Shown: positions 5,026 through 9,106 of the stretch, in pieces
How positions within the stretch are numbered: the first letter of the stretch is position 1
Layout: each line of letters begins with the position of its first letter
NCBI GenBank assembly: GCA_943372155.1
Contig: CALRXP010000002.1
Location: forward strand, 1-32,612
Reading direction: 5' to 3'
Length of the DNA: 32,612 nt
Source: Candidatus Endomicrobiellum trichonymphae
GTDB taxonomy: Bacteria > Elusimicrobiota > Elusimicrobia > UBA1565 > UBA9628
The notes under the pieces: generated by a model
Databases searched by the model: none
Told to the model about the DNA's origin: nothing
What the model saw: the letters and a program-made list of their open reading frames with translations, nothing else
Translations under genes and position numbers: made by a program

Positions 5026-5931
5026 TTAGCGCGCGCTCAGCGTGGTGCGAAACAACCGCGACGGCTTCTTGGGATCGTCCGCGTCCGTCACGGCGAAAAT
5101 CTCAAGCCGCCCGTTCGCCAGCTTTCCCGGCGCTATCCCCTCGATCTTCTCGCCCGCCAGCCGCGATAAGATGACGGGCTTCCGGCCCTTCGGCAGAATC
5201 CCAACGACGGAGCCGATGATTTTCCCGTCCGCGTAAGTGCTGTTCCCAGCCTCGGCCGTCGCCGCGAAGTACGCGACGCCGTCTAAGAAAAACCCGTCGG
5301 AGAAGCTCAACGGCACGTGATCCCAACGCGGCAGCGGGGCTTGCGCAATGTTTATGTGGAGAGAGGATCGTCGCCATACCCCTTTCAGACCCTTCATGAA
5401 AGCGGCGAGCCGGATCTTCACGATGGCGTTGAATCGCGCCTTGCCGTTGCCTCGCTGGAGCAGGATGAGATGCCTGCGGCGAACAAAGCCGCCCTCGATG
5501 TTGAGTTCAGGAATCATGTCGTCCAAGATGTTCATGAGCGGGCGAAAATTAATTTCGCGCGCGGACTTCCATTCGCCGGAGGGAGAGAGCCGGACCAGCG
5601 CGCCGCGGCAGCGGCGATCTTTGGAGCCGGACGGGAACGCGACGAGGCGGCCGTCGCCGAGATCGATGAGGGACTCGAGGTCCTTTTTGACGCGCTTGCG
5701 CCGGACGGCGTCCTGAGGAAGTTCTCCTGGGAAGATGCGGTGTCCGCGGCCCGCGCCTTTTCCGTCGGGAATCCATACGAGATGATTCAGATCGTCGGCG
5801 ACCCCCCAGAAGCCGCCGGGGACGCGCGCCAGGCCGCTGCCGGCGCTGAGGGGGCGGAGGGGGGCGCCGGCGGAGGTTCGCCAGCGCAGGAGTTTGAGAA
5901 GTTCCCAGCGAGTTGCCGGAAGACCCTTCAC
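5026..5931 (-). CDS. Hypothetical protein (301 aa)
   Basis: Long ORF with host-like GC3 usage. The GTG start at 5931 overlaps (GTGA) the stop of an upstream open frame. No motif I can name. Confidence 0.6.
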   Translation of the reverse strand: MKGLPATRWELLKLLRWRTSAGAPLRPLSAGSGLARVPGGFWGVADDLNHLVWIPDGKGAGRGHRIFPGELPQDAVRRKRVKKDLESLIDLGDGRLVAFPSGSKDRRCRGALVRLSPSGEWKSAREINFRPLMNILDDMIPELNIEGGFVRRRHLILLQRGNGKARFNAIVKIRLAAFMKGLKGVWRRSSLHINIAQAPLPRWDHVPLSFSDGFFLDGVAYFAATAEAGNSTYADGKIIGSVVGILPKGRKPVILSRLAGEKIEGIAPGKLANGRLEIFAVTDADDPKKPSRLFRTTLSAR

Positions 5932-6056
5932 TCGATTCCGGCGAGCATGCCCGCGTATGGGGAGATGAGGTCCTTGGCGTTCTTCATTTTCGGGAGCGAC
6001 TCGTTAATGGCGTAGAAGATGGTGTGATCCTTGTTTTGAGGAAGTTTAACGCCGAC
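5928..6056 (-). pseudogene. 3'-terminal remnant (42 codons) of a gene apparently truncated at the island boundary
   Basis: My minus-strand translation is VGVKLPQNKDHTIFYAINESLPKMKNAKDLISPYAGMLAGIE*. GC3-rich host-like codons. Its stop TGA (5928-5930) overlaps the GTG start of the 301-aa gene. The frame is closed by a TGA at 6057-6059, exactly where GC content drops. Confidence 0.35.
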
Positions 6057-6081
6057 TCAATCCGTTTCGCCGTTAACCACA

Positions 6082-6221
6082 ACTCTCCCCGGGGAGAGTC
6101 CCAGGTACTAATGATAATCACTGTTTCCTGGAAACAGTTCCCAGCCAGGTCGTCTAACGCAGAGGCTGACCAGCGGCGGCTTCAACAGTCCAACCAAACG
6201 AGGCCGCCGGCTGGTCAAGCC
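6082..6221. repeat. Cluster of three palindromes/hairpins in non-coding DNA downstream of the GIY-YIG gene
   Basis: (1) Perfect 18-bp palindrome ACTCTCCCCGGGGAGAGT (6082-6099). (2) 19-nt palindrome ACTGTTTCC-T-GGAAACAGT (6120-6138). (3) Imperfect long hairpin GACCAGCGGCGGC-N22-GCCGCCGGCTGGTC (6168-6216, one bulged G), extendable to 6164-6221. Confidence 0.7.
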
Positions 6222-6225
6222 AATG

Positions 6226-6234
6226 GTTAGCCGC
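6226..6234. repeat. Left copy (GTTAGCCGC) of a perfect 9-bp inverted repeat bracketing the three-gene cassette
   Basis: Lies 2 nt outside the cassette's final stop codon (6237-6239). It is the reverse complement of 7587-7595. Confidence 0.6.
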
Positions 6235-6236
6235 TG

Positions 6237-6497
6237 CTAGTGCTTCTGCGCCAATATCAATTTCCGTTTCTCGTTTTGATCCAGCCGTTTGATTGCTTTT
6301 TCACGAACCGCCGCTGCACCCCGATTCTGGAAATTGTCTTCCTTGTAAACCAGCTCAACGGGACGCCTAGATCTCGTGTGAAGTGCGCCCGTGCCGCGGT
6401 TGTGTGCGTCTATTCTTGCGTAAACATCATCTGAAATCCCAGTATAAAAAGTGCCGTCTGAGCAGAGAACGATATAGACCGACCAGTGTGCTTCCAT
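6237..6497 (-). CDS. Minimal GIY-YIG nuclease family protein (86 aa, UPF0213/YhbQ-like)
   Basis: MEAHWSVYIVLCSDGTFYTGISDDVYARIDAHNRGTGALHTRSRRPVELVY... matches the GIY-(x)n-YIG / R / H pattern. Its ATG overlaps the GNAT stop (TAATG). Confidence 0.85.
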   Translation of the reverse strand: MEAHWSVYIVLCSDGTFYTGISDDVYARIDAHNRGTGALHTRSRRPVELVYKEDNFQNRGAAAVREKAIKRLDQNEKRKLILAQKH

Positions 6498-6928
6498 TAG
6501 ATCAACTTCTCCAGGTGATCATCCTTGGGAATAGGCGAGTATCCTTCGGATTTATAGAAGTTCGTTAAGTCCGCTGCTGGAATTGACTCTCCAAGGGGCT
6601 TCGGCTTGAGTACTATTCGAGTGCATTTAAGATGCTTTGCCAGCTTCTCTGCTGCGCGAACGATTTGGCGCGCGATTCCTCTCCTTCTGTGCGCAGGATC
6701 AACAAAGATTGAATAGATCACCAGGAGCTTTTTATTGTCGTAGTGATCGAATACAGTGAAAGCTGTCTCGTTGTTATTTTCAAGAACGAGGTAATCGTAC
6801 CTGGAATAATACTCGGACTTCTGAGTGTGGGCCCGGCTGATGATGTCACGCAGATAGCCTGATTTTGCCTCATACCGATTGTCGACTTCTTTAAGTTGGA
6901 TTGGTGGCATGAGGCTAACGCCCTTCAC
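6497..6928 (-). CDS. GNAT family N-acetyltransferase
   Basis: 143 aa from GTG 6928 (or 137 aa from ATG 6910). Acetyl-CoA binding motif A is VDPAHRRRGIARQIV. GTGA overlap with the upstream gene's stop. Confidence 0.8.
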   Translation of the reverse strand: MKGVSLMPPIQLKEVDNRYEAKSGYLRDIISRAHTQKSEYYSRYDYLVLENNNETAFTVFDHYDNKKLLVIYSIFVDPAHRRRGIARQIVRAAEKLAKHLKCTRIVLKPKPLGESIPAADLTNFYKSEGYSPIPKDDHLEKLI

Positions 6929-7581
6929 TTAATCAGTCCAAAACTTATCGGCTTGTTTACCGGGAAATTCTTTGTCATTTCTGACAGCACCCCAGAGGCT
7001 TCTACAAGATAGGCGTTTATCTCTGCATCGAGGTCGACGTCAACAGCCTTCAGCTCTTTGCGGTTCTTGTATGAGTGGAAGCTAAATCCACGAGTGCCCA
7101 ACTCAGGCCGAGAAAGAAAACTGGGTCCTTCCGTGTCGGCATCATGAGGATGTCCGGCAATACAGACGCGAATTCTCCGTACGCGGTTCCAGGCGGAATC
7201 CTTGGCCCATTTGTATTGCTTCTGCAGCAAGCAGCTATGAAGATTTGCGATCGCATCTTGGTTGAGTGAGAGGGCCTGCAGCACTCCGTAGAGCCGCAGA
7301 TATCGCCCGCCAATAGTTTTCAAAGATGCGTTATACCCGCGACCTTTGTCTCGGGAAAGTCCGTGCCGGAGGTAATATCGGATGGCTTCTAGGCTGTCTT
7401 CCAGAATATCCATCGACACACACGTCGGAAGCCAGCGCTTGTCGTCAGCAAGGAGTACTTCTTTGAATTTCCCGTCGTCTCCGTCATTCACCCAGTCTCG
7501 TACATGTCCTGCAAGCTTCCCGCATTTGGCGAGATTGCGCATTGCTTGGCGGCGTAATTGCATAAGTTCCTTCGGATCCAT
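6925..7581 (-). CDS. Uncharacterised protein with an Abi-type HEPN-like R-x5-H motif (218 aa from ATG 7581; TTG 7584 also possible)
   Basis: Track ORF 6925..7584. Predicted helical. Contains RYLRLYGVLQALSLNQDAIANL and VRRIRVCIAGHPHDAD (RVCIAGH fits Rx4-6H). The CDS call is fairly safe; the HEPN assignment is inference only. Confidence 0.6.
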   Translation of the reverse strand: MDPKELMQLRRQAMRNLAKCGKLAGHVRDWVNDGDDGKFKEVLLADDKRWLPTCVSMDILEDSLEAIRYYLRHGLSRDKGRGYNASLKTIGGRYLRLYGVLQALSLNQDAIANLHSCLLQKQYKWAKDSAWNRVRRIRVCIAGHPHDADTEGPSFLSRPELGTRGFSFHSYKNRKELKAVDVDLDAEINAYLVEASGVLSEMTKNFPVNKPISFGLIK

Positions 7582-7586
7582 CAAAT

Positions 7587-7595
7587 GCGGCTAAC
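7587..7595. repeat. Right copy (GCGGCTAAC) of the 9-bp inverted repeat bracketing the cassette
   Basis: Lies 5 nt upstream of the cassette's first ATG (7581). A near copy, GAGGCTAAC, sits at 6911-6919 directly abutting ATG 6910 of the GNAT gene. Confidence 0.6.
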
Positions 7596-7611
7596 TTGTG
7601 ATTATGCTGAT

Positions 7612-7770
7612 CAGCCTATCCTGGCGGGTAATAAACGTCATCTCCGGATTGTATAGCGAAAACCAATATTTCGCCATGCCGAAGCGTTCGACGAAGGGGA
7701 GATAGGCTGCAATGGTTGTCAGCCTATCACCAATAGGGTAGCCCCCTGCCTATCCTGATTAGGGTAGCGG
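7612..7770. repeat. Intergenic motif cluster: CAGCCTATC x3-4 (one pair forms a 9-bp-stem hairpin) and a 26-bp-period tandem repeat GCCTATC-N5-TAGGGTAGC x2
   Basis: CAGCCTATC at 7612-7620 and 7720-7728, with its complement GATAGGCTG at 7701-7709 (hairpin 7701-7728, 10-nt loop). Tandem units at 7722-7742 and 7748-7768 share 17/21 positions. Confidence 0.6.
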
Positions 7771-7784
7771 TTATTCGGCCTCGA

Positions 7785-8117
7785 CTAGCGCAGCAATGCG
7801 TCGAGCCGACCCAGCACATCCTCAACCACGCTCGCCGGCGTCTTACAGGAGAACTTCGCATCGCGAGCCTGCCAGTCAAGGCTCTTCACTTGATCGGACA
7901 GCACGACGCCGGAGGCATTGAGTCCGGATGGAAGGGGGACTTCGAACGGATAGCCCTTAACCTGGGACGTGATCGGGCAGAACAGCGCGAGGCCGACCTT
8001 GCGGTTGTATTCCTCGGGGGACAAGGTCAAAGCCGGCCTGAGCCCGGCCTGCTCGTGCCCCGACTGCGGCGTGAAGGAGAGCCATACGATGTCGCCGCGC
8101 TTGGGGCAGTAGGCCAT
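7785..8117 (-). CDS. mazF: MazF/PemK-family endoribonuclease toxin
   Basis: Track ORF 7785..8150. I prefer ATG 8117 (MAYCPKRGDIVWLSFTPQSGHEQAGLRPALTLSP...FCPITSQVKGYPFEV), which overlaps the antitoxin stop (TAATG). Confidence 0.85.
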   Translation of the reverse strand: MAYCPKRGDIVWLSFTPQSGHEQAGLRPALTLSPEEYNRKVGLALFCPITSQVKGYPFEVPLPSGLNASGVVLSDQVKSLDWQARDAKFSCKTPASVVEDVLGRLDALLR

Positions 8118-8359
8118 TAAAGGAGCTCCCTGCCGACGGGCGCTCCCCAAGAAATCTCGCTATGGCGATTGTCCTTCGTGACCGCTTTAAGGAGTTGGGA
8201 AAGAGAGAGCTTCCGCTTTTTCACTGGCTTCACCGTCAGGTGGCCGTCTTCAACGGTGAGTTCGACGGAGGTGCCTTGGCTCAGCGCGATCTCCTTTGCG
8301 ACGGAGCTCGGAATTCGCAGAGCCAGGCTGTTTCCCCATTTCTGGACGGTGGCGTTCAT
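8117..8359 (-). CDS. mazE: MazE-type antitoxin (AbrB/SpoVT swapped-hairpin domain)
   Basis: Track ORF 8117..8401. I prefer ATG 8359 (MNATVQKWGNSLALRIPSSVAKEIAL...), preceded by a GGAGA Shine-Dalgarno sequence. Confidence 0.85.
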   Translation of the reverse strand: MNATVQKWGNSLALRIPSSVAKEIALSQGTSVELTVEDGHLTVKPVKKRKLSLSQLLKAVTKDNRHSEISWGAPVGRELL

Positions 8360-8374
8360 GGCGAAGGTCTCCTC

Positions 8375-8417
8375 GATGTATCTACAATGAGTATACATCA
8401 AGAATAGCCCCCGTCAA
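8375..8417 (-). promoter_or_regulatory. Putative sigma70-type promoter of mazEF with an overlapping operator-like inverted repeat
   Basis: Minus strand reads TTGACG (8417-8412), a 16-nt spacer, then TATACT (8395-8390). The inverted repeat GATGTAT-N11-ATACATC (8375-8399) overlaps the -10. Confidence 0.5.
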
Positions 8418-8524: not shown

Positions 8525-9106
8525 ATGGGGCGTACCCTCGTGCTGAACAGGAGCTTCCGTGCGGTCGCGGTCGCCGATTGGCGCCGCGCCGTCACTCTTG
8601 TTTATATGGGCCTCGCCGAGGCCCTCGACGAGGACCTCACCTCCTACGATTTCCAGGCCTGGATCGCCGCTTCGTCCAATTGGGTTGAGCTTCCCGGCGG
8701 CTTCGTCCAGACGCCTAACATGCGCTTCGCCGTGCCCGAGGTGATCCGGCTCGTGCGCTACGACCGGATCCCGCACCGCGAGGTCGCGTTCACGCGTCAC
8801 AATGTTTTCGCCCGCGACCGCTACAGGTGTTCTTACTGCGGCAAGCGCAAGTCGAGCGACGAGCTCGATTTAGATCACGTCATCCCGCGATCGCGTGACG
8901 GCGCCAACGAATGGACGAACGTGGTGACCTCATGCCGGCCGTGCAATTTGAAGAAGGCCGACCGCCTGCCCGATGAGGCCGGCATGCCGCTCAAGAACCG
9001 GCCGGTGCGCCCGAGATGGACCTTGATGGGAAGCCTTGTGCCTCACCCGAGGGCGCATATCCCCGATAGCTGGAAGAAGCTGCTGTCCGAAGAGCCGACG
9101 GCGTGA
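8525..9106 (+). CDS. HNH endonuclease
   Basis: 193 aa. C-terminal HNH/zinc motif CSYCG...LDLDHVIPRSRDG...NVVTSCRPCNLKK. Confidence 0.85.
   Translation: MGRTLVLNRSFRAVAVADWRRAVTLVYMGLAEALDEDLTSYDFQAWIAASSNWVELPGGFVQTPNMRFAVPEVIRLVRYDRIPHREVAFTRHNVFARDRYRCSYCGKRKSSDELDLDHVIPRSRDGANEWTNVVTSCRPCNLKKADRLPDEAGMPLKNRPVRPRWTLMGSLVPHPRAHIPDSWKKLLSEEPTA

Follow-up and report, generated by a model that had tools for sequence, protein, structure and literature searches.

The window analysed here is a 32,612-nucleotide stretch of the Candidatus Endomicrobiellum trichonymphae genome (Elusimicrobiota; assembly GCA_943372155.1, contig CALRXP010000002.1, positions 1 to 32,612). It contains a compact block of three minus-strand genes that encode a protein of an unnamed family (gene 1), a small GNAT acetyltransferase, and a stand-alone GIY-YIG protein (gene 3). 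A first-pass annotation, made from the sequence, had proposed that the trio is a new three-component HEPN/GNAT/GIY-YIG defence or addiction system. Our analysis shows that the locus is an integron gene cassette, an element of a known kind and not a new three-component system, although the family to which its attC site belongs is newly defined here. The reading we favor, with a probability of about 0.8, is that of a lone integron gene cassette in an Elusimicrobiota chromosome, made up of three independent open reading frames (ORFs) that became fused, with gene 1 as a candidate defence effector. Among the three, gene 1 alone is a plausible new defence gene; its family is found next to restriction enzymes in many microbes.

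The ORFs run from 7584 to 6925 (gene 1, 219 aa from a TTG), from 6928 to 6497 (GNAT, 143 aa from a GTG), and from 6497 to 6237 (gene 3, 86 aa). They are packed as the first-pass annotation had described, with a GTGA overlap at 6925-6928 between gene 1 and the GNAT gene and a TAATG overlap at 6497 between the GNAT gene and gene 3. The drop in GC content reported for the block is also real, but the contrast of 38-53% with about 70% was overstated: we measured 0.49 for gene 1, 0.46 for GNAT, and 0.51 for gene 3, against 0.62-0.67 for the flanking genes and 0.637 for the window. In a sliding profile, GC falls to 0.46-0.52 at ~6000-7700 versus 0.62-0.68 on both sides. GC content at third codon positions (GC3) is 0.53 for gene 1, 0.53 for GNAT, and 0.54 for gene 3, whereas native neighbors range from 0.78 to 0.85. 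Low GC and GC3 relative to the native genes bear out the proposal of horizontal acquisition, and since the three genes share one GC3 value, they arrived together. An assembly chimera is ruled out by an independent assembly from another run (L029), whose 4,150 bp between tsaE and the beginning of gene 3 match the window at 100% identity.

The cassette measures 1,437 bp on the minus strand (6158..7594) and encloses all three ORFs. Its first base is the T that follows G7595 of an upstream core, and its last is G6158, in the R' core of the attC. Its upstream boundary is an R'-type core, GTTAGCC (7589..7595, minus strand), located 4 nt before the TTG at 7584 and 7 nt before the ATG at 7581 of gene 1. 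At the other end lies an integron attC site (6150..6234, minus strand), an 85-nt match to the covariance model described below that spans 81 nt from box to box. The R'' box, GGCTAAC (6232-6226), is next to the ORF end and fits RYYYAAC at 6/7 positions; the R' box, GTTAGAC (6158-6152), fits GTTRRRY at 7/7, and the two boxes can pair at 6/7 positions. Between them are unpaired spacers of 4 nt (on the ORF side) and 5 nt, a stem of 4+6+7 bp, and a loop of ~22 nt. The bulges are two single bases, both on the ORF-proximal (R''-L'') arm. Known attC sites range from ~57 to 141 nt, and their extrahelical bases have a role. Folded as single-stranded DNA, the site reaches -25.8 kcal/mol (z = -4.9), and 0/200 shuffled sequences are equally stable. 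The covariance model recognizes this one site in the 32.6-kb window (93.6 bits; E = 1.3e-21), the next match having an E value of 0.27, and no Rfam family matches the region. No integrase-like ORF is encoded in the window. Given a single attC and no integrase, the locus is filed as a lone cassette (SALIN) and not as a complete integron or CALIN.

The attC site has a family of its own. A strict two-arm pattern (~55 bits) applied to metagenome contigs recovered 36 copies on 31 JGI metagenome contigs, several of which carry two or three copies in a single orientation. Together with the copies of the window and of L001, a contig with a gene 1 relative, these form the 38-copy alignment on which the covariance model was built. 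The boxes of the 38 copies read YCTAAC and GTTAG(R/N)Y. The long helix is paired in 99.4% of the alignment cells, and seven pairs have changed on both sides, all of them in columns that the search pattern had left free. Covariation amounts to 0.255, compared with 0.079 after shuffling (0/500 shuffles reach 0.255) and at most 0.065 in slid-partner controls. The covariance model further reveals dense co-oriented arrays, with ~16 copies in 6.8 kb of L040 and 8 in L039, and it matches incomplete arms at the extremities of three contigs that carry relatives of the cassette genes (L001, L002, and L030). Arrays are headed by integron integrases in L037 (1110-2423, minus strand), L039 (3623-4948, minus strand), and L043 (124-1386, plus strand), which score 423-436 bits against NCBIfam TIGR02249, a model whose cut-off is 265. 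Pairwise identity among the three enzymes is 58-64%. Relatives of gene 1, GNAT, or GIY-YIG were absent from 100 kb of array contigs. On the grounds of its fold architecture, the covariation of the family, and the arrays beside integron integrases, 6150-6234 is a genuine integron attC, and the segment from 7594 to 6158 is a gene cassette.

Comparisons with other contigs place the junctions at the same positions. L030, which comes from another sample and has a GC content of ~51%, is 96% identical to the window only from 7595 downward and is unrelated upstream. The homology starts at the G of GTTAGCC; above this point L030 carries the 3' arm of an attC (GCCGCCGC...GCGTTAGCC) and reads GCCGCCGCTCACCCCCTGC where the window has unrelated sequence. 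On the downstream side, L002 is 97% identical to the 35 nt after the GIY-YIG stop, and the sole mismatch is at a predicted bulged base.

The closest relatives of the cassette genes keep different company. The only other copy of the trio is that of L029, which is 100% identical and belongs to the same genome, and a cluster look-up for gene 1 returned near-identical copies on two more contigs. In L001, the order is an attC (947-1029, 70 bits), the gene 1 relative P0003, a relic attC 5' arm, and an 84-aa ACP-like ORF. The relic (CTAACATTGG...GGCGGCC) begins at the stop of the gene 1 relative and no longer folds, so an intact attC at this position, which we had considered, was discarded. On a JGI contig, the gene that follows the other close relative, P0002, was not among the GNAT relatives that the GNAT search returned, and its difference from GNAT is deduced from that absence only. 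In L002, an attC 3' arm precedes a GNAT relative as the first ORF, itself preceded by GCCGCCGCCGCACAGCCTCAGCGTTAGCC; an unrelated 169-aa ORF (with an ATGA overlap) and an attC arm follow. Beyond these contigs, a local hidden Markov model search found neither GNAT nor GIY-YIG genes in 22 other loci of the gene 1 family, although the window genes were recovered as controls. Because the closest relatives have different partners and the families do not co-occur in these 22 loci, an outcome that the first-pass annotation had itself named as refuting its proposal, the three-part system is not supported.

The junction between gene 1 and the GNAT gene suggests how two of the ORFs came together. The stop of gene 1 and the GNAT ATG at 6910 are 14 nt apart, in the window as in L030, and these 14 nt include GCGTTAGCC (6913..6921, minus strand), a relic of an attC R' core. 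This 9-mer is found once only in the window and matches the R' end of the attC family; homology with L002 starts there, and in L002 the same 9-mer closes a real attC 3' arm. No hairpin is predicted at the window junction (z = +0.27). Given this relic and the fact that relatives of the two genes stand first in separate, different cassettes, the simplest reading of the sequence is that GCGTTAGCC marks an attC that collapsed at the point of a cassette fusion, in which case the GTGA coupling would be incidental. The start of the GNAT gene points the same way. The source gene call places it at ATG 6910 (137 aa) and not at GTG 6928; this ATG sits 2 nt past the GCGTTAGCC core, a spacing that is identical in the L002 relative; and the GTG (143 aa) is used by just one independent gene call. 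For these reasons, the GTGA overlap is probably not functional. The tight packing that had been taken as the sign of a module is thus explained by a cassette bounded by a core and an attC, apparently with a collapsed attC inside.

Gene 1 (6925..7584, minus strand; 218-219 aa) likely starts at ATG 7581 or ATG 7563. The first-pass annotation could not assign it to a family, and we found no match for it in Pfam, NCBIfam, PHROGs, PADLOC, or PDB sequences. Only two relatives at ~63% identity, P0002 and P0003, were found among 5.8 billion proteins, while an exhaustive HMMER search gathered 460 representative clusters at E<=1e-3, with 23 at E<=1e-10. Most members of this unnamed family have either 180-200 aa or ~310-330 aa, the longer ones including a coiled-coil-like extension. 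Such an extension, C-terminal and ~120 aa long, is present in about a third of the members listed (for example, the long forms of L008, L010, and L019), and one protein of 706 aa (P0007) is a family member fused to a transglutaminase-like protease domain. PDB profile matches of gene 1 were dismissed as coiled-coil noise from the long-form extensions. Across 72 family members, Pfam at E<=10 gave singletons only, with HEPN_AbiU2 and PaREP1 appearing once each at noise level, and PADLOC models gave one noise-level match.

The family consensus comprises W..LC.SMD.LEDT, YLRLYG.LQA..LQQDAI, W...R.LRN...GHP, and FLSR. D63, G100, R139, H145, and P146 are invariant in the gene 1 alignments, and D59, Y95, Y99, Q103, Q108/Q109, D110, R136, and G144 are nearly so; the window protein has R136, R139, G144, H145, and P146 in its motif. 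The R-x5-H motif noticed in the first-pass annotation is thus present: R139...H145 is invariant in a 72-sequence alignment, and H145 is invariant in every alignment made. AlphaFold2 predicts a fold of long helices, a three-stranded sheet, and a C-terminal helix, with a pLDDT of 91 and a pTM of 0.87 for the window protein and a pLDDT of 94 for a minimal member of 153 aa. When these two confident models were compared by Foldseek with the PDB and BFVD, no significant neighbor appeared; the best PDB hits had E values of 0.16 and 0.18 and TM scores <0.4, with no HEPN entry among them. We dropped the idea of a demonstrated HEPN fold after this result. The published hallmark of HEPN proteins is an Rx4-6H motif (PMC3710099). 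Gene 1 has this motif, and its position at a helix end leading into a loop fits, but the fold is not recognizable as HEPN and neither profile nor Foldseek searches gave a HEPN match, although a very remote relationship is conceivable. The motif may accordingly be called HEPN-like on its sequence, whereas HEPN membership is unproven.

To see where relatives of gene 1 reside, we used a hand-designed degenerate pattern, which recovered 18 genomic loci from very different phyla, archaea included, each with a true member of the family. In 7/17 non-redundant loci, the same-strand gene immediately upstream, or one at a distance of two genes, encodes a restriction or defence enzyme: a Type I R subunit with an overlapping stop/start (L016), a Type IIG Eco57I-type enzyme (L008), a Type III Res (L019), a GmrSD with a Snf2/PLD helicase downstream (L018), a SEFIR/TIR protein (L010), a DinG-like helicase (L007), and an Mrr (L006). 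Among the remaining loci, some feature a coupling protein of a type IV secretion system, a resolvase, or a DDE transposase, while a few have housekeeping surroundings. Two plasmid copies, annotated as hypothetical proteins, occur among insertion sequence (IS) elements and a SIR2 gene. These defence and mobile contexts agree with the expectation raised at the outset for gene 1. No phage copy of the family was found, nor did the metagenome scan contain close relatives of gene 1. Two Acidobacteriaceae metagenome-assembled genomes (L015, 6140-6373; L020, 2964-3197) share an identical, truncated 77-aa family copy beside a DDE_3 transposase, which is probably a pseudogene in an IS-associated region. 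The genes that follow family members all differ. With no GNAT or GIY-YIG in the 22 loci and different genes following in each, the gene 1 family looks like a defence-island resident that stands alone, not like one part of a three-gene system.

Taken as a lone cassette, the locus could have formed as follows. Gene 1 and GNAT would each have been the first gene of their own cassette, and the attC between them would have collapsed to the 9-nt relic, leaving the genes tightly packed in a unit without a promoter of its own that is mobilized and transcribed as a whole. An integron integrase would have joined the folded attC of the cassette to a G|TT, either of the host or of an older site. From such an integration, GTTAGCC would remain at the upstream end, and the complete attC, with GTTAGAC as its last box, at the downstream end; the empty site would be expected to read mazF and then ...CACAAG|TTAGACGACCTGG... 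across the junction. Upstream of gene 1 we detected no promoter-like site, and the attC is followed by terminator-like hairpins, which suggests that transcription probably proceeds by read-through from the promoter of mazEF, the toxin-antitoxin pair next to the cassette. As for its product, gene 1 is most likely a self-contained catalytic effector of a new defence-island family, with a putative catalytic center formed by R..R(N)xxxGHP together with D59, D63, and the conserved Q/D residues. It is possibly an RNase of HEPN-like chemistry. More tentatively, gene 1 could represent a new single-protein anti-phage family of ~180-220 aa, sometimes with a coiled-coil or transglutaminase-like extension, having a fold without known relatives and an R..R(N)xxxGHP catalytic center, and spread in bacteria and archaea both as an integron cassette and as a 3' add-on to restriction-modification and defence operons. 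That the fused GNAT modulates gene 1 is more speculative.

Several observations weigh against parts of this scenario. No empty site is on record in a search through the exact mazF protein, so the insertion event is one that we infer. The target on the upstream side is not a clear attC, nor is it an attI; it may be a plain secondary site or else a degenerate attC belonging to the mazEF unit. The GNAT/GIY-YIG junction (TAATG) bears no attC relic, which leaves the joining of gene 3 unexplained, and a different gene occupies this place in L002. For the enzymatic role of gene 1, the argument is drawn from conserved residues and genomic context alone; the residue after R139 is N in the family consensus and V in the window protein and its two closest relatives, and no profile or fold search links gene 1 to HEPN or any other nuclease. 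Finally, gene 1 and GNAT are arranged together in L030 too, at 96% identity, as a pairing of the two would predict.

Such a pairing, in which gene 1 is an effector and GNAT an acetyltransferase that modifies or neutralizes it, with gene 3 as an unrelated add-on, would also fit the recurrence of both genes behind a different upstream attC in L030, their movement as one cassette, and the variable position after GNAT (GIY-YIG in the window, the unrelated 169-aa ORF in L002). We nevertheless consider it unlikely. An identity of 96% reflects recent common ancestry and not independent retention; the gene 1 relatives at 63% identity lack GNAT, that of L001 having an ACP-like ORF instead; the GNAT of L002 heads its own cassette without gene 1; and no GNAT is found near distant family members. 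Very unlikely, in our view, is that all three genes form one functional defence or addiction module for which the cassette is merely the vehicle. The trio is unseen outside this genome, the closest relatives of each gene have other partners, and an attC-core relic separates gene 1 from GNAT. Moreover, the defence-model screen that the first-pass annotation had called for returned 0 families for all three proteins (PADLOC, PADLOC-DB v2), GNAT is not of the toxin type, and the GIY-YIG protein is a generic UPF0213 member. These results outweigh the packed, promoterless, and co-oriented arrangement of the genes, their joint arrival with one GC3, the residence of the gene 1 family in defence islands, and the reports that multi-gene cassettes are often functional units and that cassettes are enriched in defence systems.

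Both of these accept that the block is a cassette. Were it instead an assembly artefact or a generic islet left by a transposon or phage, the hairpin would be a transcription terminator; it does stand where a terminator is expected, with terminator-like sites within 100 nt after it, and the window contains neither an integrase nor a second attC. We regard this as extremely improbable, since no T-tract follows the hairpin, the independent assembly is identical, the homology with L030 breaks exactly at G|TT, and the hairpin belongs to a family with RYYYAAC/GTTRRRY boxes, conserved bulges, covarying stems, and arrays beside integron integrases. The lone cassette of three fused ORFs is the reading that we retain.

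The two other cassette genes encode proteins of familiar families, as the first-pass annotation had recognized. GNAT (6497..6910, minus strand; 137 aa from ATG 6910) matches Pfam Acetyltransf_1 (2e-11) and Acetyltransf_7 (8e-11), and its single relative outside its own cluster is the L002 protein, at 70% identity. In a search of PDB sequences at E<=1, it retrieved MW0638, AAC(6'), RimI, YpeA, and similar proteins; TacT, AtaT, and KacT were absent from these matches, and no antitoxin-type small gene lies upstream. A TacT/AtaT-type toxin, the role considered earlier, thus finds no backing, and we infer a generic small-molecule or protein acetyltransferase, typical of integron cargo. Gene 3 (6237..6497, minus strand; 86 aa) is, from its sequence, an ordinary GIY-YIG nuclease-like protein of the UPF0213 family (PF01541, 1.3e-12). 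Its PDB matches, 1YWL (EF2693; 6.4e-13 over residues 4-80) and 1ZG2 (BH0048; 5.3e-10), are both labeled hypothetical UPF0213 proteins. Its 142 homologues are no more than 59% identical to it across nearly the full length and bear the names "GIY-YIG nuclease family" or "putative endonuclease"; the closest of them on long contigs have housekeeping surroundings. We found no useful literature on YhbQ, UPF0213, or COG2827. The exact 86-aa protein is absent from a collection of 15 billion proteins in which its neighbors are present; apparently the source record either lacks a call for this gene or has a different one.

On the host side, the cassette and mazEF occupy a variable hotspot upstream of an HNH-yjeF-tsaE-tsaB-rimI block. 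Other Elusimicrobiota genomes are syntenic with the window for HNH, YjeF-C, TsaE, TsaB, RimI, TPR, IspE, SpoVG, and GlmU, whereas the content directly upstream of the HNH gene is different in each genome compared, which identifies the site as a hotspot. The HNH protein (193 aa; 8525-9106, plus strand) belongs to a cluster (>=90% identity) of 134 sequences, all named members of which are Elusimicrobiota. Its gene always comes first in the yjeF-tsaE-tsaB-rimI block, the HNH part of IscB/Cas9 is the best named match of the protein, and it appears housekeeping-like. In one of these genomes (L024, CP096137), the hotspot (6801-7869, minus strand) holds another accessory insert, three small genes of 145, 105, and 86 aa, the last two overlapping, without Pfam matches.

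The mazE/mazF pair lies outside the cassette, at 7785..8401 (minus strand), and its presence next door, already noted in the first-pass annotation, is confirmed by Pfam (MazE_antitoxin, 8e-14; PemK_toxin, 3e-25). We considered whether mazEF belongs to the acquired block; its native-like GC3 (0.80 for mazF and 0.69 for mazE) and its own sigma-70-like promoter site (8417-8390) rule this out. The spacer between mazF and the cassette (7585..7784, minus strand) contains direct and inverted repeats of the GATAGGCTGA type at 7604-7620, 7712-7728, 7722-7742, and 7748-7768 (families D2 and D4). It could be a degenerate attC of another type, a set of operator sites, or the original insertion target. A second attC of the present family was sought in it and rejected, given no covariance-model match and weak folds (z of -1.9 and -1.35).

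Beyond the left junction, the DNA is again native. A 27-nt palindromic element, ACTGTTTCCAGGAAACAGTGATTATCA (6113..6139, minus strand), is Elusimicrobiota DNA on the host side of the junction. It is identical in L024, an unrelated Elusimicrobiota genome (7266-7292, minus strand, with a 24-nt exact core at 7269-7292), and both copies are in the variable region upstream of the HNH-yjeF-tsaE block, that of L024 ~30 nt before a gene start. A role as operator, terminator, or hotspot of recombination is possible. The left neighbor of the cassette (5026-5931, minus strand) encodes a 301-aa DUF6929/DUF6910 protein and has native composition. A 19-codon ORF overlaps its GTG start through AGTGAAGGG, a string also present at the gene 1/GNAT junction, probably by coincidence.

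Overlapping codons and foreign composition are the ordinary signature of an integron cassette, in this case an apparently fused one, and recognizing them as such averts a false lead. The locus offers a clean natural SALIN in Elusimicrobiota, with both junctions placed to the nucleotide, and appears to show a fusion by attC collapse; as a cassette both lone and fused, it bears on how integron cargo escapes into genomes without integrons. The homogeneous attC family, its covariance model, and the associated integrases can be used to mine further cassettes. Gene 1, for its part, introduces a widespread unnamed family with a confidently predicted, unmatched fold, catalytic-looking invariant residues, and a strong association with restriction and defence genes, which makes it a candidate new defence gene.

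Lone cassettes have been described as SALINs (bioRxiv 10.1101/2022.09.11.507474; IntegronFinder 2.0, PMC9024848), and integrases have been shown to generate them through insertion at 5'-GWT-3' sites that do not belong to att sites (bioRxiv 10.1101/2022.09.11.507474). As in such elements, the ORFs of the window are promoterless and co-oriented, start a few nucleotides past a GTT core, and end in an imperfect-palindrome attC; this attC has the RYYYAAC and GTTRRRY boxes, an unpaired spacer, bulges, and a variable loop, and its family forms arrays beside IntI. Like other SALINs, the cassette is of foreign composition and stands alone in the chromosome without an integrase. It differs in holding three ORFs in 1.4 kb instead of the usual one, apparently through loss of an internal attC, in its host phylum, Elusimicrobiota, and in its target, which is neither a recognizable attI nor an attC of the family. 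The source integrons of this attC also depart from classical ones: intI lies upstream and is co-directional with the cassettes, whereas it is divergent in classical integrons.

Integron cassettes often encode compact anti-phage systems, according to two preprints (bioRxiv 10.1101/2024.07.02.601686 and 10.1101/2024.07.02.601719), and given these reports, a defence role of gene 1 is plausible. Like the phage-defence cassettes (BRiCs) of the same sources, gene 1 is a small, streamlined gene in a cassette, and its family is found in restriction and defence neighborhoods; it differs in being known here from sequence alone and in matching no PADLOC model. With the HEPN Abi-type RNases (PMC3710099), the gene 1 family shares a helical structure, an invariant R-x5-H at a helix end running into a loop, an N after the R in its consensus, conserved acidic residues in the preceding helices, and a defence-island context. 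Unlike them, gene 1 has no profile or structural match to HEPN; it also has an invariant P after the motif, a second conserved R before it, a three-stranded sheet ahead of the last helix, and, in the window protein, a V in place of N, D, or H after the R. The GNAT protein resembles the toxins TacT, AtaT, and KacT in fold and small size, but it shows no similarity to them at E<=1, no small RHH antitoxin gene lies upstream, and its L002 relative heads its own cassette. Gene 3, finally, aligns end to end with UPF0213/YhbQ-type proteins (1YWL and 1ZG2) and is of the same size (80-100 aa), differing from them only in being the cargo of a cassette.

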